A stretch of 64,000 nt of DNA from Promethearchaeota archaeon (GTDB lineage Archaea > Asgardarchaeota > Hermodarchaeia > Hermodarchaeales > Hermodarchaeaceae): NCBI GenBank assembly GCA_048939625.1, contig JBHLPH010000002.1, positions 1 through 64,000 of the forward strand, read 5' to 3'. Position 1 is the first letter of the stretch; every line of letters starts with the position of its first letter. Made by a program: the position numbers and the translations under genes. The notes under the pieces were generated by a model. It had not been told where the DNA came from, searched no databases, and saw only the letters and a program-made list of their open reading frames with translations. Below are positions 50,465-64,000 of this stretch, one piece after another.

Positions 50465-50623
50465 CCAGATGATATGCAGATACATACCAAAGGAGTACCC
50501 ACCCTTATACTCAAATCTGCGACAAGAACTGATGAGCTCTCCCAGATCCAAAACGGATCGTGAAGAGACTAACCTCTCTTCGTCCCAGTCCTTAAGGCCC
50601 GCAAGGGCCTTAACCTCTTTTTT
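50465..50623 (+). ncRNA. Candidate structured non-coding RNA (strand uncertain)
   Basis: Intergenic run of nested and adjacent stems: GCAGAT/ATCTGC, GAGTA/TACTC, GATCC/GGATC, GAAGAGA/TCTCTTC, TTAAGGCCC/GGGCCTTAA; TTTAAA at 50433-50438. Confidence 0.35.
50592..50623 (+). terminator. Perfect 9-bp hairpin with GCAA tetraloop followed by a T-tract
   Basis: TTAAGGCCC-GCAA-GGGCCTTAA (50592-50613), then CCTC and TTTTTT (50618-50623). Confidence 0.55.
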
Positions 50624-50632
50624 GCGCGAATC

Positions 50633-51205
50633 TTATCGTTCAGCAAACCGCTGTTCAAGCCACGGATCTGCGCCTTGATGATAACCCCGTTTCTCCCAAA
50701 AGCCCAGTACAGCTTCTGTTAGAAAACTGATTCGCCGCACCCATTTCACACTTTTCCAAGCATAAAGCCGTGGAACAACGAGGCGAAGGGGCCAGCCGTC
50801 TTCAATGCGGAGTGGCTCATCATTACGGTTCCAAGCCAAGATTACGTCATCTTCCATCGCAACTTCCAAATTGATGCCTGATGTGTACTCGTGTTCCGCG
50901 TAAAAGAGAACAAATGTTGCTGAAGGTTTTGGCTTCACAATTTTAGTAATTTCTTTGAAAAGCACACCTTCCCACTTATTATCAGGCACCGACCAGGTCT
51001 CAACGCAATGGAAATCACTGAGCTGGGTTGTCACGGGAAGGGTCTTTAGTTCCTCGTAGGAGAAGGTATGGGGGTTTTTGACTTCACCATTGACGGTGAG
51101 AGTCCAAGTTTCGGGATTGAAGGGTTCTGGCATGCGTTCGGCAGTGCGGACAGGAAATCCGGTAATCCATCGTTGACCGGGTGGGAGGCGGGGTTTCCGT
51201 GACAT
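50633..51205 (-). CDS. Sulfite oxidase-like molybdopterin-binding oxidoreductase (YuiH/MsrP-like)
   Basis: RLPPGQ, DFHCVETWS, GWPLRLVVP, YAWKSVKW, GFWEKRGYH. Confidence 0.92.
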   Translation of the reverse strand: MSRKPRLPPGQRWITGFPVRTAERMPEPFNPETWTLTVNGEVKNPHTFSYEELKTLPVTTQLSDFHCVETWSVPDNKWEGVLFKEITKIVKPKPSATFVLFYAEHEYTSGINLEVAMEDDVILAWNRNDEPLRIEDGWPLRLVVPRLYAWKSVKWVRRISFLTEAVLGFWEKRGYHQGADPWLEQRFAER

Positions 51206-51354
51206 GGACGTGACCTCGGTAGATGTCTCGCACGGTTAGAGTTCATATAACCTTCGGATTATCCTTTGACTCTTCTATATTGAGTGGAGATGCCGCATTG
51301 AGTAGGAATAAAAAGTCTGCTGTCAGGATTCAAAGAGTTCTGGAGGCTTCACAT

Positions 51355-51585
51355 ATGAGAAGTTACTTGACAATATATGTGAGTAGCGAGGGTGCAGCGC
51401 CTAGCGAAGTCGTTGAGCGACTCATGCGGATGGGGTTTCAGCCTGTGGCAGGAAATTACGATTTTGTTATCGAGTGGGATGAGAACGGCACGGTGCAGGA
51501 TATGATTGAGGTGGCGAATCAGGTCCATGCTACGCTGAAGGGCTGCAAGGTTATTTTCAAGATGGAATCAGTCCCGTCGAAGTGA
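51355..51585 (+). CDS. Small hypothetical protein (76 aa, MRSYLTIY...)
   Basis: ATG at 51355 follows a GGAGG SD; SSEGAAPSEV and GF-P--G-YDF pattern; the longer 51223 start is unlikely. Confidence 0.7.
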   Translation: MRSYLTIYVSSEGAAPSEVVERLMRMGFQPVAGNYDFVIEWDENGTVQDMIEVANQVHATLKGCKVIFKMESVPSK

Positions 51586-51600
51586 GATTTAAGACCTTCA

Positions 51601-52710
51601 TTATTCGATGACTTTCCTGAGGAACTTACCGTTTTTGTAGAAGAGCTCATTATCCGCAAAGATCTTCCCGTCTTTAGTCATATCCGCGAGAATATCCCAA
51701 TGAATGGCTGATTCGTTTTTGCCACCACTTTCCTCAAAGCCATTACCAAGAGCGCAGTGGATTGTTCCAGTGAGTTTCTCATCGAAGAGAATGTTTTTCG
51801 TGAACTTTGTGATGCCAGGATTCGTTCCAATTGCGATTTCACCGAGTCGCTTCGCTCCATCATCAATACTCAGTATGTGATCGAGCAGGTCTTGTCCCTC
51901 CTCGGCAGTGGCTTTGGTGACTACTCCCTTCTCGAAGGTAAGGGTAATGTCTTCGACTTCTTTTCCCATGAAAATACCTGGATACGAAAACCGGATGGTG
52001 CCTTCGACACTATCTTCGATAGGAGATGTGAATACCTCGCCATCGGGCATATTCAAGTGTCCGTCGGCGTTGACCCAATTTCGACCAGTGACTTTGGCTG
52101 TGAGGTCGACGTCGCTACTTTCGAAGCGGATCGTGTTCTTGGTGTTGAGATAATTGGTGATTTTGGCTTGTTTTTTACTTAGTTGTTGCCAGAGTTTCAC
52201 AGGGTTAGGTTTGTCCACGAGGCACGCTTTGTAGACAAATTCTTCGTATTCCTCAGTGCCCATGTTACCCTCTTGAGCCAGGCTGGATGAGGGGTAGGGA
52301 ACGAGGGCGTACCAACCCTGTTTGAGTCGAGCAGTAAATCGTTTGTGGATTTCAGTTTGCGCTTTTGCTGCACGAGCTTGTTTTGCTGGGTCAACGTTAG
52401 CCATCGCTTTTCGGTTATCAGATGAGAAGACGACGAGGTAACTGTCGAGTTTGTCAATCATTTCGAGGATTATTGGATTAACGTAATCGAGTTGGTGGTC
52501 TTGGGCATATTTGAAAAAGATTTCTTGCGCACGGGGAAGATAAATCCTAGTAAAGGGGTGACCGCCAGCTTTCATGATTTCCCGGGATAATTCGAGGACT
52601 AAGGGTTCAGCAAAAGCAGGGGCGCTCACTCCGACTAAATCACCTTTTTTGACGCCGAGTGAGTATTCAACGGTGAGTTGAGCTAATCGTGAAATACGCT
52701 CATCAACCAT
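51601..52710 (-). CDS. Aminopeptidase, M29 family (AmpS/AmpT-like)
   Basis: NMPDGEVFTSP, LGEIAIGTN, ILFDEK, HCALG, NESAIHWD; MVDERI start at 52710. Confidence 0.92.
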   Translation of the reverse strand: MVDERISRLAQLTVEYSLGVKKGDLVGVSAPAFAEPLVLELSREIMKAGGHPFTRIYLPRAQEIFFKYAQDHQLDYVNPIILEMIDKLDSYLVVFSSDNRKAMANVDPAKQARAAKAQTEIHKRFTARLKQGWYALVPYPSSSLAQEGNMGTEEYEEFVYKACLVDKPNPVKLWQQLSKKQAKITNYLNTKNTIRFESSDVDLTAKVTGRNWVNADGHLNMPDGEVFTSPIEDSVEGTIRFSYPGIFMGKEVEDITLTFEKGVVTKATAEEGQDLLDHILSIDDGAKRLGEIAIGTNPGITKFTKNILFDEKLTGTIHCALGNGFEESGGKNESAIHWDILADMTKDGKIFADNELFYKNGKFLRKVIE

Positions 52711-55716: not shown

Positions 55717-58113
55717 CTAGTTCCCGGGGCGATTATGTTCTCGCATGATGTTCGCCATTTCCTGTAACCGCTTATCGACACGTCCAAAGATCGAGTCCTC
55801 AGGATAGGTGCCATCTGCTTGTCGTTTTCCAGCGGGAATCCCTGTGAGGAGTTCAATTCCGTCTTCGATGGTTCTTACCGAATAGATATGGAATTTCCCT
55901 GCTTCGATAGCCTCGATAACTTCATCTTTCAGCATAAGGTTTTGCACATTAGATTCAGGGACCAAGACGCCTTGATCTCCGGTTAGACCATTTTCTTTGC
56001 AGACTGCGAAGTAGCCTTCAATTTTCTGGTTGACACCACCGATGGCTTGGACATGCCCATGCTGGTTGACTGAGCCTGTCACAGCAAACCGTTGTTGAAT
56101 GGGGACCTCGGATAGCGCGGATAGCATAGCATAGAGTTCAGTGCTACTTGCGCTATCGCCATCAACACCTCCATAACTTTGTTCGAAGGTAATCCGTGCG
56201 GAGAGACTCAAGGGTTTGTCTTGACCAAAGACTTCGTGGAGAAATCCTGTGAGAATTTGGACCCCTTTGATTTGGATGGGTCCACTAAGTTGGGCTTCCC
56301 TTTCGATGTCAATAACTTGTCCACGGCCTGGTGCGACGGTTGCTGTAATGCGAGACGGTTGCCCGAAACTGAAATCGCCAAGAGAGAGTACTGATAACCC
56401 GTTAATTTGACCGATCGCTTCACCCTCTGTATCGATTAGGATGACACCTTTCTTGATATATTCCCGGACTTTTTCGGCATACAAACTTGACCGGAAGAAG
56501 CGCTCATCGAGGGATTTTTTGATGTGAGATATTTCAATGATGGATTTTCCGTCCTTTTTCGCATAGAAATTGGCTTCACGAATGACATCTGCGATAATAT
56601 CAAACCGTGTAGATAATTTATTTTGGTCATCAGCAAGCCGCGAACTGAAATCGACAACCTCAGCTATTGCATCAGCATCCAAATGGAGCAAGTCTTCTTT
56701 AGCAGTCAGAGTGCAGACAAAGTCGCCGTAGATTTTCACAGAAGCTTTATTCCGGTCCATGGATGTGTCGAAATCGGCTTTCACTTTAAACAGCTCGCGG
56801 AAATCAGGATCCAATTGATACAGTTGCTGATACCATAGAGGCTGACCGATGAGGATAACCTTAAGTTTTAGCGGAATAGGCTCAGGATGCAGGGTTTTCA
56901 CGGAGAGAAATCCCAGAGTTGCAGCAGGTTCTTCAATGACAATCTGATCATTTTGTAGCGCACGCTTCAACGCTTGATAAGATGCAGGAGCAATCAGCAA
57001 TTCTCTTACAGGAATCACCAGATAGCCCCCGTTTGCCTGGTGTAAACTACCTGCCCGTATCATGGTGGTGTCGGTTACGAGCGCACCGAAGCGGGGTTCC
57101 TTTTCAATGACCCCGAAGAGTCGATCATAAGCAGCATTCGTAACGGTGACTATCGGAGCGCCTTCTGTTTCGGAATTATCAACTAGAAGATTGACCCTGT
57201 AACGTTTGGCAAAATCTTCGGGAGACGGCATCCGCATGAGAAGTTCGGGAGGCAATCCTTGGGGTTGCCTACCGATGAACTCGTTCAGATTTTTAATTAG
57301 ATCATCAGCCAATTCCGTAAGCCAAGTAACAACTTTTTCATTGCCAGCGAATTCTTCTTCAATTTCATTTAATAATGGTTCAAGTGTAAATCTGACGGCC
57401 TTTTCTTCCATATCATGAAGTTGATTACGTAAATCCCGCTCTAAGGATCGCAATTTTCGGAAAGCCGACCGTAACTCCGTTTCCAAAGCTTCCCGACGTT
57501 TCTCGATTTCTTTTCGGACTTCTGGCTTTAGCTTAGGAATCGCATCTGGCGTAATAGGTTTGCCGTTGATCATAGGCACCATTAACAAGCCAGTTTGGGT
57601 CCCTTGCAAAACAAACCCCGCGTGCTCAGCCTTTTGCCGCATCTGCTCTGTGAGTTCGTCGCGTTCCTGTTCAAATTTCCGAGTCAACTCTTCACGTTGT
57701 TGCGCGTATTCTTCACTTTCGAGCATCCGCTGAATCATATTCCGTGCGGCTTCGATGAATTGATCAATCTTAGCCACAAAGACCTTCCCCATACCTGCAG
57801 GAAACTCCAAGGCTTGGGGTTTGAATTGGTTCTTGTAATTCGTGACATAGCACCAATCAGAGGGCACTTCACGTAATTTGGCTGCAATATCTTCCAAATA
57901 CCGTTCCGTGGCAGTATGTCGACCAGTCCCAGGACTACCTGCGACATAGACATTGAATCCTTTGTCAGGAATCTCCAAGCCAAATTGCAGGGCGTTCAGG
58001 GCACGTGGTTGCCCGACGACCCCTTCGAGAGGGGATAGTTCGGCACTTGTTTTACATGCAAACTCGCGTGATTTACAACGCGCACGCAATTGGTCAGATT
58101 TTAATTCAGACAT
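55717..58113 (-). CDS. Lon-like protease, LonC (AAA_32) type
   Basis: GQPRA, degenerate Walker A GSPGTGR, coiled insert, ANGGYL, GQINGL, EQSYGGVDGDSAS (catalytic Ser), GGVNQK (Lys). Confidence 0.92.
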   Translation of the reverse strand: MSELKSDQLRARCKSREFACKTSAELSPLEGVVGQPRALNALQFGLEIPDKGFNVYVAGSPGTGRHTATERYLEDIAAKLREVPSDWCYVTNYKNQFKPQALEFPAGMGKVFVAKIDQFIEAARNMIQRMLESEEYAQQREELTRKFEQERDELTEQMRQKAEHAGFVLQGTQTGLLMVPMINGKPITPDAIPKLKPEVRKEIEKRREALETELRSAFRKLRSLERDLRNQLHDMEEKAVRFTLEPLLNEIEEEFAGNEKVVTWLTELADDLIKNLNEFIGRQPQGLPPELLMRMPSPEDFAKRYRVNLLVDNSETEGAPIVTVTNAAYDRLFGVIEKEPRFGALVTDTTMIRAGSLHQANGGYLVIPVRELLIAPASYQALKRALQNDQIVIEEPAATLGFLSVKTLHPEPIPLKLKVILIGQPLWYQQLYQLDPDFRELFKVKADFDTSMDRNKASVKIYGDFVCTLTAKEDLLHLDADAIAEVVDFSSRLADDQNKLSTRFDIIADVIREANFYAKKDGKSIIEISHIKKSLDERFFRSSLYAEKVREYIKKGVILIDTEGEAIGQINGLSVLSLGDFSFGQPSRITATVAPGRGQVIDIEREAQLSGPIQIKGVQILTGFLHEVFGQDKPLSLSARITFEQSYGGVDGDSASSTELYAMLSALSEVPIQQRFAVTGSVNQHGHVQAIGGVNQKIEGYFAVCKENGLTGDQGVLVPESNVQNLMLKDEVIEAIEAGKFHIYSVRTIEDGIELLTGIPAGKRQADGTYPEDSIFGRVDKRLQEMANIMREHNRPGN

Positions 58114-58331
58114 TATACATCCTCCCCATGAGTGGAGAAAGTTAATACTATCTACTATTTAAGACACTTGAGGATTTTCAATTTCTTTTCTACGACGACT
58201 TCGTTACACAAGCGAAGCAATACAAGTAAAGCAACGACTTAACGCTGTGAATGGTTGTGAAAACCAAAATCTCTTAAGGAAGAATACGGCATGAAAAGAC
58301 TACACTGAACCTTTCAGGTAGTTGACCCATC

Positions 58332-59537
58332 ATGGCCAAAACACCCACAACCATGACCATCCCAATTGGTCCCCAACACCCTGCGCTCAAAGAGCCAGAA
58401 AACTTCACCCTCACCGTCGACGGGGAAGTCGTCGTCGACGTCGCACCCCGAATTGGTTACGTCCACCGAGGTATCGAAAAAGCATTTGAAAGCCGAACGT
58501 TTAGCCAAAACGTCTACCTCGCGGAACGGATTTGCGGTATCTGCTCCCAATCCCATACCACATGCTACGTCCAAGCCGTCGAAGAAATTCTCGATTTAGA
58601 AGTTCCCCCACGTGGATTATACATTCGGGGCATCATGAATGAGCTGAACCGGATTCACAGCCACATCCTCTGGCTAGGCGTGGCTGGTCACGAAATCGGA
58701 TGGGACACCCTCTTCCACTATTCGTGGCGTGATAGGGAATACAGCATGGATATTATTGAAGAAATTTGTGGGAACCGTGTCAACTACGCCAACAACATCA
58801 TTGGCGGCGTCCGCCATGATGTGGAGAAGAGCCAAGTCCCGGGCATGGTGGAACGCCTCGAAAAAATCCGTGACCGCATGCACCACTACCTGAAATTAAT
58901 CCTGAATGAACAAACCATTTTAGACCGGGCCCTTGGTGTGGGCATCCTCGAAACTGAAGTCGGAAAAGCCCTCTGTGCCACTGGTCCCACTGCCCGCGCC
59001 TCCGACATCCACTGGGACGTGCGCAACACCCAACCCCGCACCCCCTACCAAGAAAGCGAAAACAAACACTGGGAAATCCGCACCTCCGACCTCTGCGACG
59101 TCGCCGGCCGCGTCGTCGTCCGAATACTTGAAACCGTCGACGCCTGCACCTGCTGCATCGACTGGCTCAAACACCTCCCCCCAGGCGACATCAGCGTCCG
59201 CGCCCCCCGCCGCGTCCCACCCGGCAAAGCCCTCAGCACCTTCGAAGCCCCCCGCGGCGAAGTCGTCCACTTCGTCGTCAGCAACGGCACCGACAAACCC
59301 GAACGCCACAAAGCCCGCGCCCCCACCCTCGGCAACATCCCCAGCGTCGTCGAAATCATCAAAGGCGGCAAAATCGCCGACGTACCCATCGCCCTAGCCA
59401 GCATAGATCCCTGCTTTTCATGTACTGATAGAATCATTCTCGCGTATCCCGATGGTTCAAAGGAGGAAAAGCCTTGGGCATGGTTCCAAGAAAAAAGCCG
59501 CGAAGAGAGAGAAAAAGTGAAAGCTTGGCGCCGTTAG
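58332..59537 (+). CDS. Group 4 (energy-converting, Mbh/Ech-like) [NiFe]-hydrogenase large subunit
   Basis: PIGPQHP, GYVHRGIEK, ERICGIC (L1), EAPRGE, DPCFSC (L2) followed by TDR and a cleavable-type tail. Confidence 0.93.
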   Translation: MAKTPTTMTIPIGPQHPALKEPENFTLTVDGEVVVDVAPRIGYVHRGIEKAFESRTFSQNVYLAERICGICSQSHTTCYVQAVEEILDLEVPPRGLYIRGIMNELNRIHSHILWLGVAGHEIGWDTLFHYSWRDREYSMDIIEEICGNRVNYANNIIGGVRHDVEKSQVPGMVERLEKIRDRMHHYLKLILNEQTILDRALGVGILETEVGKALCATGPTARASDIHWDVRNTQPRTPYQESENKHWEIRTSDLCDVAGRVVVRILETVDACTCCIDWLKHLPPGDISVRAPRRVPPGKALSTFEAPRGEVVHFVVSNGTDKPERHKARAPTLGNIPSVVEIIKGGKIADVPIALASIDPCFSCTDRIILAYPDGSKEEKPWAWFQEKSREEREKVKAWRR

Positions 59538-59554
59538 TGATTCAGCCTCTTATC

Positions 59555-61567
59555 CTAGAGTAACCTTTCCATTCCTATCTTTGCCTTCCCTTTTCGGTCA
59601 ATTGACTTAAGGGATTTTTGCTTTTGATAATCCTTAATCCATTCGAGAGCCGCTTTTCTTTTCTCCCCAGAACTTGGTGGAGTTATGATTGCCCAGCAAT
59701 AGGTATCATTTTCGGATTTGGTATAGATTTCCCAGATTGCTGATACCCGATTGGTTTCATGGAGAATGATTTTTTTAAAGATCGTTGTCATTTGAATGCC
59801 TAAACTTTTGATTAGATTCTTTTCATCTTCAAGAAGTTCACAAGGATGGTTTTTAATAATTCGTCTTAATTCCCTGGCTATTTGTTCATCTTTTTGTGTC
59901 ATAGCTTGAGACGTTAGTTTATCTAGCCTTCCCTTCAATATTTCCATTCGTTTTCTGGGTTTATCATCTCGTATGGCTTCATATCGCTCTATACCATACT
60001 TCTGGATGAATTGATTATGTCTATGTGTGATCATTGGTTTGTATCTATACAGCTTGGTTTTGGGTCCTGCGTCGAGTACATGAGCACGTTTGATTCCGAA
60101 TTTCATTTGTCCATTTCTTTCAACAAAAAACCCATCTTCGGGGACAACTTCAGCAAGGTAAGCAGATCTCATCTCAAGTGTACCTTGTTTAATGGTTTGT
60201 GGTAAACGAAAATCGGGGCTGAGTAGTTTGTCGCCTTTGGGGACGCCCCAGTGTTCGAGGAGTCGACCGACGACTGCTGTTATTGTGAGACGTTTTCGTT
60301 GTCCTTGAAGTTCTTCGGTTTTGTAGTCGGTTTCTCCGAGTTGTCGGAAGAGGGTTCGGACGTATTCAATTCGTTTTGGATCTTTTTCGTGGTAGGTGAG
60401 GACGTGGGTGGTTTTGTTGATGTGGCAGTCGCTGAGGGCGATGGCGATGAGGCGGGCGCGGAGTTCGTTGAGTTCTTTACCTTCGGGGAAACGTGGGTTG
60501 TGGATGCCGCCGCTGTGTTCGGTGGTGCTGATGCGGCCGATGTGGGTTATGTGGGGGGTGATGGTGTTGAATGGTTGGTTGGTGGTGTTGAGGAGGAGGT
60601 GGAGGGTGTCGCCGTGGAGGTAGTGGTTGTATTTGGTGGACCAGAGTTCGTAGGGGGCGGCGCGGGGGTTGTAGGTGCGGTGGCGGGGGTGGGTGGTGAG
60701 TTGGTTGAGGAGTTGGCCGAGTTGTTGGGTGTTGGTGTTGAGGTGGTGTTGGGCGGTGGTGAGGAGTTGTTCTTTGATGTGGGGGGTGAGGTAGAGGAGT
60801 TCGTGGTGGTAGGTGTTGAGCCAGTGGTCGGGGAGGGTGGTTTTGCGCCAGAGGTAGAGGACATCATGATCGATGGCGAGGCGAAGTTCTTCGTGGGTGT
60901 TGGCGAGTTGTAGGCGTTCGGTGAGTTTGCGTTCGAGTTCAGATCGGTGTTTTTGAATGGAGTGGGCGATGGTGCGGAGCTGTTGGGGGCCGCGTTTGTG
61001 GTAGGGTTTGAGTTCGGCGATGAGGAGCCGTTGGTCGGATTTGTGGTGGTAGAGGGTGGCGAGCGCGGTGGTGAGGGGGGCTGGGGTGTGGGTTGTGGGG
61101 TCGTCGAGTAAGTGTTGGAAGGTGGTGTAGACGAGGCTGGGATCGAGGAGGTGGGGTTGGGTTTCAGTTGGCAGATGGCGTTCCCAGCGGTGGCGGGCAG
61201 CCTCATGAATGGTGAGGGTGCGTTCGAGGTGGGGCTGTTTGATGCCAAGGTGCCAGTCGCGGAGGCGTCCGGCGGGGATGCCGGTGAGGTCTTGGAGGTC
61301 TTTGTAGGTTTTGTTGCTGAGGTGGCCATCGTGACGTGCCGCGGTGAGGATGCGGTGCCAGAGGGCATTAATGGAGGAGTGAGTGCATGTAGTGCGGGTT
61401 TGGAGGTAGGGGTGGCGTGCAAGGTCGTGTTCGAGGGTTTTCCAAGCGCGTGTGCCATATGTGTTGAGGAGTTGTCGGGCTTCGGGAGTTGCAGCTAGGG
61501 TGTCTCGGAGCATGGCCCAGTCGTGGATGGATGTCCAAGTCTGGTGAATGGAGTTGGTGGGAGACAT
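59555..61567 (-). CDS. Free-standing protein with an HTH-like segment and two LAGLIDADG-like motifs
   Basis: TYKDLQDLTGIPAGRLRDW HTH-like segment; LIAIALSDCHI and YLAEVVPEDGF motifs with GVPKGDK...FRLP between, as in DOD endonucleases; no intein splicing termini. Confidence 0.65.
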   Translation of the reverse strand: MSPTNSIHQTWTSIHDWAMLRDTLAATPEARQLLNTYGTRAWKTLEHDLARHPYLQTRTTCTHSSINALWHRILTAARHDGHLSNKTYKDLQDLTGIPAGRLRDWHLGIKQPHLERTLTIHEAARHRWERHLPTETQPHLLDPSLVYTTFQHLLDDPTTHTPAPLTTALATLYHHKSDQRLLIAELKPYHKRGPQQLRTIAHSIQKHRSELERKLTERLQLANTHEELRLAIDHDVLYLWRKTTLPDHWLNTYHHELLYLTPHIKEQLLTTAQHHLNTNTQQLGQLLNQLTTHPRHRTYNPRAAPYELWSTKYNHYLHGDTLHLLLNTTNQPFNTITPHITHIGRISTTEHSGGIHNPRFPEGKELNELRARLIAIALSDCHINKTTHVLTYHEKDPKRIEYVRTLFRQLGETDYKTEELQGQRKRLTITAVVGRLLEHWGVPKGDKLLSPDFRLPQTIKQGTLEMRSAYLAEVVPEDGFFVERNGQMKFGIKRAHVLDAGPKTKLYRYKPMITHRHNQFIQKYGIERYEAIRDDKPRKRMEILKGRLDKLTSQAMTQKDEQIARELRRIIKNHPCELLEDEKNLIKSLGIQMTTIFKKIILHETNRVSAIWEIYTKSENDTYCWAIITPPSSGEKRKAALEWIKDYQKQKSLKSIDRKGKAKIGMERLL

Positions 61568-61832
61568 GGTCTGTTCAGTAGGAGGGGGTGGAGAATTGGC
61601 TTTATACTCCTCAAATGGGGTGGTGGGAGTTATGGTGATGAGGACACCTCTCCCAGGGGCCCGGATTTTATTTCCTTTAAATGGATTACGGTGAGCAGAA
61701 CGGGAGGTGTGTCTGTGAGCATGGTTCCAGGCGAAGAGTTGGGGAGAGCGGGAACGCGTGAAGGCGTGGCGTCGTTAATCATCCTGAATGAGGTTGGTTA
61801 TTCGCACCCTGCAATTCAAACAGTAGTTCGTC

Positions 61833-62342
61833 TTAGGTCTTGTTATAGGAGAGTTGTTTGTTTTTTCGTTTCAGCATAAGGGCAAAAGTGCCGATTAGTG
61901 CGATGAGAATCGCAGGCCACGGGAATCCAGGAATGGGTATTGGTTCTTCACTCCAGGCTACTGTAAGTTGACCATATTCTGCGGTGGTGGTGGCTCGTTC
62001 GAGGATAACTCTCGTTGGTGTCTCGATGGTGAGGGTTAGATTGTATGTTCCAGGACTGGTTTTGGACACGATTGCTGTGGGTGCCCACCCATAAGTTGGA
62101 TTGGTTCGATTGAATTGGTAGGTGGTGCTTGTGTTGCCAGAAATTTGGTGAATGTCGGATCTGGCACCGTAACTGCCCGACCAGTCTCCCTCACAGTACA
62201 CGCAAATAATAACACTTTCAGTCGTTTCTCCGGTAACTCGGTTTGGGAATGCTAACAAGCCACTAATAACTATCACAACTAAAATGGCGATACTCAACCT
62301 TCGGCTCAACAAACCATTCACTTTCCGACCCTCCAGTTCCAC
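61833..62342 (-). CDS. Secreted/surface protein with a C-terminal PGF-type sorting signal
   Basis: N-terminal signal/TM segment, Thr-rich beta domain, IPGFPW plus TM helix plus KRKNK. Confidence 0.75.
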   Translation of the reverse strand: MELEGRKVNGLLSRRLSIAILVVIVISGLLAFPNRVTGETTESVIICVYCEGDWSGSYGARSDIHQISGNTSTTYQFNRTNPTYGWAPTAIVSKTSPGTYNLTLTIETPTRVILERATTTAEYGQLTVAWSEEPIPIPGFPWPAILIALIGTFALMLKRKNKQLSYNKT

Positions 62343-62402
62343 TTCAGAACCCTAAGCTAGTATTAGGTGTCGTGTTCTTAAATTTTTGTGAAGTTTCTGT
62401 GG

Positions 62403-63254
62403 TCATGAGAAGGCTTTGGTCCAGGTGGTTTTGATTTCATCTGTTGTTATTTTTCTGATGGTGTTAGTTTTGGTTTCGATGACGGCGGCGTTGAGTTCGT
62501 CGGGTGTTCGGGTTTTGTCGCGGAGGAGGGATTTGATGGTAAGGGCGAGAGCCTTGTTAAAGGCGTGGTTGGGTGCGTATTCTTCGTTGAGAATGGTGTT
62601 GGTTTCGTTGCGGTGGGTACCTTCGCACCAGGTGAGGACTTCGCGGTATGTGCCACTGGGATCAAGAACATAGAGGTGGAGGCCGGTGTCGTCGATTCCT
62701 CCGATGAGGGCGAGAAGGCCGAGGGGGCGGATGTCTTTTTTGGTTGTATAGGAGTGGATGAAGAGAGCGAGACGGTTGGTAAGTTCTTCTACGGGGATTG
62801 GTGTTTCAGTTTCTCTTTGATAGGTTTGTGCTTCATGGATGGCTCTGTGTTTGAGGAGGAGAAAATCCCCAGAGAGGCCAGTTGGTACCATGCCGATATG
62901 GTCGGTGATTTGGAAGGTTTCCCAAGGCTGAGTGAGGATGGTGTGGTGTTTCTCCGTTTGGGAAGCTTGGGGACGTTCTTTGGCGAGGATAATGCCGCCT
63001 TTGTAGCGGAGGCCGAGGATGGTGACGCCACGGGGTGGAGATTCCATGGCGTATTCAATTTGGAAGATGCGTCCGTCAGGGGAGAAGAGGTTGGTATCGT
63101 CGTAGCCGCTGGGGACGCGGATGGGGAGGGTTTCGATGTAACGGATGAGGGCAGCGCGGATGAGTTCGGCTTTACTGCCAAACATGCCTTTCTGAACGAC
63201 GGTGTTCATATATCGGTCCAGCTCATTAGACACAACAACGCGTACTTCAGGCAT
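62403..63254 (-). CDS. Proteasome alpha-subunit paralogue with N-terminal ribbon-helix-helix domain
   Basis: Residues 1-42 (EVRVVVSNELDRYM...GMFGSKAELIRAALIRY) fit an RHH; then GYDDTNLFSPDGRIFQIEYA, RPLG...GGID, DPSG; AGGAG SD. Confidence 0.85.
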   Translation of the reverse strand: MPEVRVVVSNELDRYMNTVVQKGMFGSKAELIRAALIRYIETLPIRVPSGYDDTNLFSPDGRIFQIEYAMESPPRGVTILGLRYKGGIILAKERPQASQTEKHHTILTQPWETFQITDHIGMVPTGLSGDFLLLKHRAIHEAQTYQRETETPIPVEELTNRLALFIHSYTTKKDIRPLGLLALIGGIDDTGLHLYVLDPSGTYREVLTWCEGTHRNETNTILNEEYAPNHAFNKALALTIKSLLRDKTRTPDELNAAVIETKTNTIRKITTDEIKTTWTKAFS

Positions 63255-63272
63255 ACATGAAAACTCCTATTC

Positions 63273-63326
63273 AATGGATATATTACGGATACTTTTAAAT
63301 GCTCTGCGCATTACGGAGTAAATGGA
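63273..63326. promoter_or_regulatory. Four AYGGA boxes flanking the TATA element upstream of the RHH-proteasome gene
   Basis: AATGGA 63273, ATTACGGA 63282, TTTTAAAT 63293-63300, ATTACGGA 63310, AATGGA 63321. Confidence 0.4.
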
Positions 63327-63463
63327 GTAGCTCCATGAAAAAGATTAGCTTACCCGAGGACAGTTATTGGAAACTAGTTGAGTTGAAAGGTAAATTCCGT
63401 TGCACAACATGGAAGGACCTGGTTGATCTGATTCACCAAAAATACCTGAACGACTGATTCCTG

Positions 63464-63676
63464 TTATCCAGTTACATTTGGTTCATCGTCGAAGAAGAAG
63501 ATGTCTTCGATTCGTTTCCCTAATTGTTGTGCTATGCGGTGGGCTAGTCGCAGGGAGGGGTTATAGGTTCCTTTTTCGAGGAAGAGGATGGTTTGGCGGG
63601 TGACACCAACAGCTTCAGCCAAGTCTTCTTGAGTTAAGTTATGTTGTTGGCGTAGTTCTCGGATCTTGGTCTTCAT
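63464..63676 (-). CDS. XRE-family HTH transcriptional regulator
   Basis: [17 protein letters not shown]...[11 protein letters not shown]...IEDIF. Confidence 0.93.
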
Positions 63677-63682
63677 GGTGGT

Positions 63683-64000
63683 CTAGTCTCCGCGTTTGTC
63701 ATAGTACATCATTGAAGCCCCCCACATTGTATAGCCTACAACCATGATGAGGACAAGGGCAGCAAAGAAGAGCTCTTGGACTGGTGGTCCACCGATGGCA
63801 AGCCAGGCGATGGCGATTACAGCACCCATTAAGGTGATGAGGAACATCACGGCGATGAAGCCATTTCGGGAGGCTTTGACGAAGTTGTTGACCAGTCGCT
63901 CATCACCTCGTCCTTCGAAGCGAAAGAAGCTGAAAAACCCAAAAAAACCGAAGAAGCCAAACCAAGCCACAGAGCCAGTTAATAGATAGAGAAGCCCTAA
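63683..64000 (-). CDS. Small membrane protein (DUF3796/DUF2178-like), 5' end outside the window
   Basis: Frame is open to base 64000 (LGLLYLLTGSVAWFGFFGFFGFF...DERLVNN..KASRNGF); commonly paired with XRE regulators. Confidence 0.7.
   Translation of the reverse strand, partial: LGLLYLLTGSVAWFGFFGFFGFFSFFRFEGRGDERLVNNFVKASRNGFIAVMFLITLMGAVIAIAWLAIGGPPVQELFFAALVLIMVVGYTMWGASMMYYDKRGD

Follow-up and report, generated by a model that had tools for sequence, protein, structure and literature searches.

The closest described counterparts of the locus analysed here are tail-replacing elements and the mutation clusters that surround double-strand breaks, both known from yeasts. The WHO elements at the FBA1 locus of Torulaspora and Lachancea replace the tail of their target gene, behind which the displaced 3' ends accumulate together with older cargo (Coughlan et al. 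2020, eLife, PMC7282813), while the mutation clusters around yeast double-strand breaks, which arise by bidirectional resection in the presence of a mutagen of single-stranded DNA, show a 5'C-3'G switch with C lost on the left and G lost on the right of the break (PMC6786661). The locus described here lies between 57 and 64 kb of a stretch of 64,000 nucleotides, referred to below as the window, that comprises positions 1 to 64,000 of the forward strand of contig JBHLPH010000002.1 from a Promethearchaeota archaeon of the Hermodarchaeaceae (assembly GCA_048939625.1). In this region the gene of a predicted homing endonuclease, named P0001, faces a [NiFe]-hydrogenase gene amid patches of extreme C/A versus G/T skew. 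These patches are the two arms of a single mirror-symmetric compositional domain around a homing-endonuclease swap module.

The skew was determined as the G+T fraction of the plus strand, with the value of 0.51 in the first 57 kb of the window as reference. In the frame of the hydrogenase gene, 98 of the 100 codons at positions 59100-59399 end in C or A, the exceptions being CTT and TGG. The plus strand is rich in G and T at 60230-61630 (0.73, rising to 0.77 within 60400-61200), at 61900-62160 (0.64) and at 62365-63200 (0.67), with a C/A island at 62180-62350 (0.37); the mostly non-coding positions 61631-61899 reach 0.61. All coordinates that the initial annotation had assigned to the codon patch, the G/T tracts and the island hold on recount. 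The GC skew at the locus peaks at +0.75. For comparison, the 23,021 windows of 200 bp in the 2.31-Mb assembly have a mean G+T fraction of 0.50 with a standard deviation of 0.054, and 8 of the 32 windows with a value of at least 0.72 or at most 0.28 fall in this locus.

Segmentation of the plus strand yielded a C/A-rich left arm at 58992-59405 (G+T 0.33, GC 65%, 96% of the codons C/A-ending), the upstream fade-out distance of which is species-specific, followed by a neutral AT-rich centre at 59406-60214. This centre of about 810 bp, predicted to be the swapped module, has a GC content of 39%, as compared with 60-65% in the arms and approximately 45% in the genome, and contains the last 44 codons of the hydrogenase gene (codons 359-401, 59406-59537), a spacer of 18 bp and the last 219 or so codons of the endonuclease gene. 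The G/T-rich core of the right arm extends from 60215 to 61486 on the plus strand (G+T up to 0.77, GC about 60%) and encodes residues 27-451 of P0001 on the minus strand, where 90% of the codons end in C or A and the product is rich in H, T, L, Q and P. A weaker continuation at 61487-63200 spans intergenic DNA, a pseudo-tail of the hydrogenase gene and the next cassette, consisting of genes for a 169-residue membrane protein and a proteasome-alpha-like protein. The skew of the right arm decays with distance. Within the patches nearly one codon is used per amino acid, NNC for the pyrimidine-ending and four-fold degenerate sets and NNA for the purine-ending ones. The C/A island on the plus strand corresponds to the first 55 or so codons, which are G/T-ending, of the gene for the 169-residue protein (61833-62342, minus strand) and is possibly an older cassette junction. 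No RNA family of Rfam was matched in the region from 56 to 64 kb.

The gene on the left side of the domain (58332-59537, plus strand) encodes a solitary large subunit of a group-4 [NiFe]-hydrogenase or NuoD-like protein of 401 amino acids (Pfam Complex1_49kDa, 3e-54; NiFeSe_Hases, 6.5e-18) with orthologues of 82-95% amino acid identity in ten congeners, and is presumably the target gene of the element. The endonuclease gene (59555-61567, minus strand) specifies the 670 amino acids of P0001 and is convergent with the hydrogenase gene, the stop codon of which is 18 bp away. An AlphaFold2 (AF2) model of P0001 with a predicted local distance difference test score (pLDDT) of 87 combines a helical, helix-turn-helix (HTH)-like N-terminal part with a double-LAGLIDADG fold, and Foldseek matched it to PI-SceI, I-DmoI and I-Tsp061I with E values of 1e-5 to 1e-4. 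The Pfam match to LAGLIDADG_3 was weak and sub-threshold, and a sequence search of the PDB gave no match, so that only the fold search was clear. The acidic residues at the two LAGLIDADG helices, D380 and E477, are invariant in 15 homologues. From the modelled structure, P0001 is predicted to be a free-standing HTH-LAGLIDADG homing endonuclease; no match to a Hint or zinc-finger domain was found in Pfam, even at E<=5. The family is restricted to metagenome-assembled genomes (MAGs) of Asgard archaea, the sources of the homologues being labelled Hermodarchaeia, Hod- or Thorarchaeota. The N-terminal 451 residues contain 15% L, 13% T and 9% H, in agreement with the enrichment in residues of C/A-rich codons noticed initially, and the C-terminal 219 residues are rich in K, I, R and E.

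A comparison with two congeners sets the centre apart from its flanks. With respect to the genome G010, the DNA of the arms is 79-91% identical and that of positions 59382-60272 only 48-75%; with respect to G012, the identity of the centre (92-96%) exceeds that of the arms (83-98%). At the protein level, P0001 and its homologue in G010 share 56-88% identity up to residue 468 or so and 41-48% beyond it. The skew changes at the very positions of these breaks of identity, 59405 and 60215, which indicates that the abrupt return to normal codon usage at 59405 marks a recombination junction, namely that of the module. In the hydrogenase tail the nucleotide identity is lower than the protein identity, which indicates that the tail is recoded, whereas in the arm it is equal or higher because the silent sites are homogenised. 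These alignments indicate that the centre is a mobile swapped module: the tail and the adjoining part of the nuclease gene do not share the history of the remainder of the target gene.

Remnants of earlier tails are stacked downstream of the endonuclease gene. A decayed copy of the last 20 or so hydrogenase codons was detected by tblastn at 61716-61782 on the plus strand; it forms a direct repeat (D2), is 72% identical to positions 59475-59541 and marks a cassette boundary. Further decayed tails follow just past the window at positions 64104-64236 and 64741-64872 of the contig. Altogether the copies span the last 20-45 codons of the hydrogenase gene, and stacks of two to four old tails are also present in G012, G007 and G010. 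Behind the repeat at 61716-61782, the proteasome-alpha-like gene (62403-63254, minus strand; Pfam Proteasome, 1e-30; 82% of the codons C/A-ending) is the fifth and most divergent paralogue in the genome, with 108 bits as compared with 153-188 for the other four, and its product carries an N-terminal extension of about 50 residues. The gene is thus not that of the housekeeping subunit but belongs to the cargo of the tail array.

In this organization the locus resembles the WHO elements. A free-standing LAGLIDADG-fold endonuclease gene lies beside a conserved metabolic gene, the 3' end of which is replaced; the unit consists of the nuclease and a tail that, by analogy, would confer resistance; the old tails are stacked and the present tail is recoded with a discordant history. 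Unlike the WHO elements, the locus resides in an archaeal host, the target is a [NiFe]-hydrogenase/NuoD-like gene, the nuclease gene is convergent with the target, and the nuclease has an N-terminal HTH-like helical domain, whereas WHO/HO proteins contain an intein (Hint) domain and a zinc finger. Moreover, the swapped unit cuts through the nuclease gene and takes only its C-terminal 200 or so codons. The element is thus analogous to WHO and not a member of the WHO/HO family. In the paper on the WHO elements (PMC7282813) the word 'synonymous' was not found, base skew and codon bias not having been searched for there, and literature searches on skew or codon bias around homing endonucleases yielded no precedent.

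The association of the domain with this class of nuclease recurs in the genome. The four strongest domains, C34 (the present locus), C38, C61 and C19, coincide with the only four free-standing HTH-LAGLIDADG genes that were found, encoding P0001, P0002, P0003 and P0019. At all four loci GC-rich arms enclose a neutral AT-rich centre of about 0.7-0.8 kb that holds the LAGLIDADG-coding part, and at least the centres of C34, C38 and C61 also include the 3' end of the adjacent gene (its final 18-44 codons). The distal HTH part of P0001, P0002 and P0003 falls within an arm; its C/A-rich codons make it rich in H, T, Q, P and L. P0019 has the reverse domain order and orientation: its LAGLIDADG part is N-terminal, and its C-terminal HTH part lies in a G/T arm and is rich in V, R, G and W. 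This mirror composition indicates that the side of the centre, and not the gene, decides on the amino acid composition. Since the co-directional P0019 shows the same geometry, convergent gene orientation as the cause of the pattern was ruled out. Next to C38, an Arf/Ras GTPase gene adjoins the LAGLIDADG gene as its apparent target; Arf/Ras-family GTPase genes (C38:1871-2791, C60:4542-5411 and C9:124636-125154) have some of the highest shares of C-ending codons in the genome. The longest open reading frame in the left, C/A-rich arm of C19 (C19:3650-4159, L045:651-1160) gives a low-complexity product rich in P, H, R, T and Q that is probably spurious.

A statistic that is invariant to reverse complementation, the keto skew of the right arm minus that of the left arm, was calculated at every position of the genome. 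The step exceeded +0.4 at 143 positions and fell below -0.4 at 5, corresponding to 13 peaks versus none, and several of the peaks lie inside single genes. When a central gap of 700 bp was allowed, 12 two-armed domains with the order C/A|G/T were obtained versus one of opposite polarity. The codon sets of the two kinds of arms mirror each other: in the C/A arms the four-fold degenerate third positions comprise C 1100, A 176, T 125 and G 34 (C 77%, A 12%), and in genes on the G/T-rich strand of the G/T arms G 204, T 55, A 40 and C 22 (G 64%, T 17%). The G/T arms prefer GAT, TGT, TTT, AAT, GAG, AAG and CAG (GAT:GAC 42:1, GAG:GAA 35:7), and the rarest codons of the genome, GCG, CCG, ACG and CGG, are dominant there. 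Non-coding DNA is skewed as well, for instance in the promoter region of L057 (3601-4000). These data clearly indicate that the skew follows the position relative to the centre and not the coding strand; the strict dependence on the coding strand that the initial annotation had named as an alternative was not found at the scale of the genome.

The arms are conserved beyond this genome. The hydrogenase arm is present in all ten congeners and in G018 of another genus, all independently assembled, and its 3' edge is fixed at codons 350-358 or so in these 11 orthologues, with an upstream reach that varies by species. In two further MAGs, homologues of P0001 (44% and 65% identity) are likewise encoded convergent with a NiFe large-subunit gene, with the same arms and an AT-rich centre. 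The occurrence of the same arms in independent relatives excludes an assembly artefact, and their conservation across genomes argues for a long-maintained state rather than a recent burst.

The direction of change was assessed by comparing species in which the arm reaches codons 130-220 of the hydrogenase gene with species in which it does not, in an unpolarised, pairwise difference matrix whose pairs are not independent. On the amino (C/A-rich) strand, the differences from weak-arm to strong-arm species were T>C 348:17, A>C 178:69, G>A 129:68 and G>C 107:40. Accordingly, the sink is C on the amino strand and G on the partner strand, and transitions alone are insufficient. This result, together with the dominance of C over A and of G over T at the four-fold sites, contradicts the initial view that mainly A>G and C>T transitions were involved. 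Another part of that view stands, namely a localised, strand-asymmetric process under purifying selection: in the hydrogenase gene only synonymous sites have changed, and in the less constrained protein of 670 amino acids the composition has been rewritten.

We therefore regard the domain as what is probably the recurrent footprint of endonuclease-triggered repair or conversion, in which G, and less so T, is enriched on the resynthesised strand. According to the proposed mechanism, the nuclease would cut sensitive hydrogenase alleles, presumably at the conserved DPCxxC-coding site at about codons 355-366, and repair from a donor would replace the tail together with the adjacent, presumed specificity half of the nuclease gene and thereby move the previous tail further downstream. 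Each round would use as homology arms the hydrogenase sequence upstream of the module and the part of the endonuclease gene that encodes its N-terminus, and over many rounds these arms would gain a strand-asymmetric and GC-raising substitution bias, by which the strand running 5'->3' away from the centre would become G>>T and its partner C>>A. If a break in the centre is followed by 5'-3' resection, it is the C/A-rich strands that would persist and the G/T-rich strands that would be resynthesised; outward nick translation from the centre would give the same strand assignment. The proximate agent may be resynthesis with an excessive insertion of G, for the most part opposite T, and less markedly of T, possibly along with GC-biased conversion or correction. 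The centre would stay unskewed because both strands are copied there and the centre is often replaced. Purifying selection would confine the effect to silent sites in the hydrogenase gene, while the N-terminal domain of the endonuclease would drift towards H, T, Q, L and P.

In kind, such a process is kin to known ones: break-repair-linked strand-biased mutagenesis, biased conversion and WHO-like elements. Y-family polymerases misinsert G opposite T, and in somatic hypermutation the Y-family polymerase pol eta inserts G opposite template T in repair patches and thereby causes strand-biased T>C / A>G changes. This class is also the largest one here and the genome encodes a Y-family polymerase; nothing connects this polymerase to the skew process, transversions to G are not typical of pol eta, and organism and process are unrelated. 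GC-biased gene conversion likewise raises GC locally where recombination recurs, here to 60-65% as against 45%, and drives silent sites against the codon preference of the genome. Being strand-symmetric, it does not by itself account for two arms of which one shows C>>G and the opposite one G>>C, and can be at most one component. The yeast clusters (PMC6786661) share with the domain mirror-image, strand-coordinated changes on both sides of a site-specific break at the kilobase scale, yet their polarity is opposite, since here the strand whose 3' end faces the break is enriched in C on both sides, and they are single laboratory events of C>T type, whereas here all bases go to C or G and an equilibrium composition is maintained across species. 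A bolder version of the proposal, that repair recruits a synthesis step with an extreme bias for G insertion and thus constitutes a natural, site-anchored and strand-specific mutator recoding about a kilobase on each side, is put forward only tentatively and appears considerably less probable than the footprint itself.

Several observations weigh against this repair interpretation. We infer that cleavage and repair cause the skew, and likewise the enzymology, from the co-location at four loci of one genome plus relatives. The flanks of the intein-borne LAGLIDADG sites of this genome, with intein-type LAGLIDADG_3 domains inside long open reading frames (C12:79612-79851, C36:18637-19182, C65:940-1149 and C67:24511-24984), show no clear two-armed skew, so that endonuclease cutting as such is not sufficient. 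No nuclease could be recognised at the centres of the eight weaker two-armed domains, and G007 has kept the hydrogenase arm though the present neighbour is not an endonuclease gene. The C/A island creates a small extra C/A-to-G/T switch at about 62350-62400 that is accompanied by neither a tail copy nor an endonuclease gene. Used as neutral reporters, the decayed tails show a modest excess of changes toward G/T (232 versus 170) in an alignment that is partly unreliable. Tail arrays were not found at the other three LAGLIDADG loci, of which C38 is truncated by the contig end. Every arm within the window has C/A on its coding strand, and effects of position and of coding strand are therefore confounded in the local data. 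Genome-wide, C/A-coding patches outnumber G/T-coding ones by 48 to 12, so that the positional effect may be supplemented by an influence of the coding strand, by selection, such as that against G/T-rich coding, or by the customary convergent layout. Finally, we know of no archaeal polymerase documented to misinsert G opposite T, A and G to such a degree.

Among the other explanations, deamination of persistent single-stranded DNA (C>U, A>hypoxanthine), either spontaneous or by a processive deaminase acting on the strand displaced by outward synthesis from a central nick, fares best, although we consider it unlikely. Some LAGLIDADG enzymes act as nickases, the G/T-rich strands are those that outward strand displacement would expose, and the largest class of changes is A>G on the G/T strand, the counterpart of the T>C differences given above. 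Transitions alone, however, cannot yield G>>T and C>>A at four-fold sites, and the excess of A>C and G>C is left unexplained. Displaced 5' flaps are normally removed, and their mutations would not be inherited. The version with resected 3' tails fails on polarity: canonical 5'-3' resection exposes the C/A-rich strands, and deamination there predicts the loss of C on the left and of G on the right (PMC6786661), the opposite of what is observed.

Slightly less probable still is a selective origin of the arms, according to which C/A-rich 3' tails that cannot pair with themselves would load recombinase and invade the donor efficiently. On both sides of the centre the strands with their 3' ends toward it are indeed C/A-rich, a strand of C and A only has no self-complementarity, and the pattern is kept at the same place across species. 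For this, selection would have to be effective at each of hundreds of silent sites although the event itself is rare, and both the C>>A asymmetry and the raised GC content are left unexplained. Moreover, recombinases of the RecA/Rad51 type are reported to prefer GT-rich and not CA-rich DNA.

Selection at the codon or mRNA level, by which C/A-ending codons would be optimal (GNN and UNN anticodons) or unfoldable C/A-rich mRNA would be favoured and the bias would follow the coding strand, is highly improbable. The coding-strand polarity of the patches in the window, the use of one codon per amino acid and the genome-wide excess of C/A-coding patches are in keeping with it, and several patched genes, such as those for peroxiredoxin, POR and hydrogenases, are plausibly well expressed. 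It is at odds with the mirror-image G/T-ending codon sets of right-arm genes, the rarest codons included, with the flips of skew within single genes and with the skew of intergenic DNA and of the plus-oriented pseudo-tail. A patched gene may also sit among unpatched genes of one operon, as is the case for Spt5, the adjoining ribosomal-protein genes of which are not patched. Codon selection does not shift the amino acid composition, which is shifted here, and the patch stops abruptly at the putative recombination junction.

A replication origin or local initiation zone, which would account for the C/A-to-G/T switch, is still harder to uphold. The sign of the switch on the plus strand is that of a bacterial or archaeal origin, as was noticed initially along with the far stronger and patchier skew, but the locus is not an origin: the 2.3-Mb genome has at least 12 such domains, their arms measure only 0.4-1.5 kb as opposed to the megabases of origin skew, no large-scale change of skew sign occurs across the site, no origin-type repeats were found at the locus and no Orc1/Cdc6 was present among the open reading frames scanned. 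The centre is, in addition, a mosaic mobile module, and the amplitude of 0.75 is far above the replication-associated skews known to us. A diversity-generating retroelement, already dismissed in the initial annotation, was rejected, since the open reading frames include no reverse transcriptase and the sole repeat is the hydrogenase tail, the differences of which also involve bases other than A. An origin of the arms from foreign DNA, a chimera or an assembly error, to which the arm GC of 60-65% against 45% and an estimated bin contamination of 6% might point, can practically be dismissed: 11 orthologues from independent assemblies have the same arms at identical codons, as do distant MAGs, orthology and co-linearity with the neighbouring genes hold for the hydrogenase arm, and we know of no donor genome with such a single-strand composition. 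A donor lineage with C/A-rich codon usage was likewise ruled out, the neighbours of the fully patched orthologue in G018 using normal codons.

With respect to the remaining domains of the genome, the weaker C/A|G/T domains, with an arm skew of 0.2-0.3, are located at C10:7020, C7:5940, C60:4540, C61:64780, C9:124030, C9:40320, C67:34530 and C72:8760. Among the genes next to them are a second one for a NiFe hydrogenase and those for Arf/Ras GTPases, of which the genome encodes several as noted above, a thioredoxin and a LigD phosphoesterase. A short frame at C53:75504-75782, with 35% identity to P0001 over residues 559-650 of the latter, may be a relic of a nuclease module; immediately downstream of it is an acyl-CoA dehydrogenase gene with a C/A patch of its own. 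Within the window, a weak change of keto skew, starting at roughly -0.15 and reaching +0.19, occurs near 51.0 kb (50600-52600) in a minus-strand gene and the DNA beyond it, a step far weaker than that of the domain at 59 kb.

If the repair interpretation is correct, recurrent repair of site-specific breaks would leave a permanent mirror-image scar as a record of past breaks, and such scars could be used to locate active or extinct homing sites in the genomes of uncultured organisms and to orient the repair process. A practical hazard for annotation would follow, as spurious open reading frames rich in P, H, R and T appear on the skewed strand and tests based on codon usage or GC content would misflag native genes as foreign or highly expressed. 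WHO-like tail-replacing elements would no longer be confined to yeasts but would include Asgard archaea, where the module boundary falls within the nuclease gene. Mutation bias would override codon preference and drive the amino acid composition, such that one domain family becomes rich in H, T, Q and P or in V, R, G and W by side alone. Should a mutator indeed be recruited, it would reshape the proteins that are encoded beside the homing site, the domains would be a readable record of where and how often breaks were repaired, and they would imply a hitherto undescribed activity of an archaeal repair polymerase or a rule of mismatch correction.

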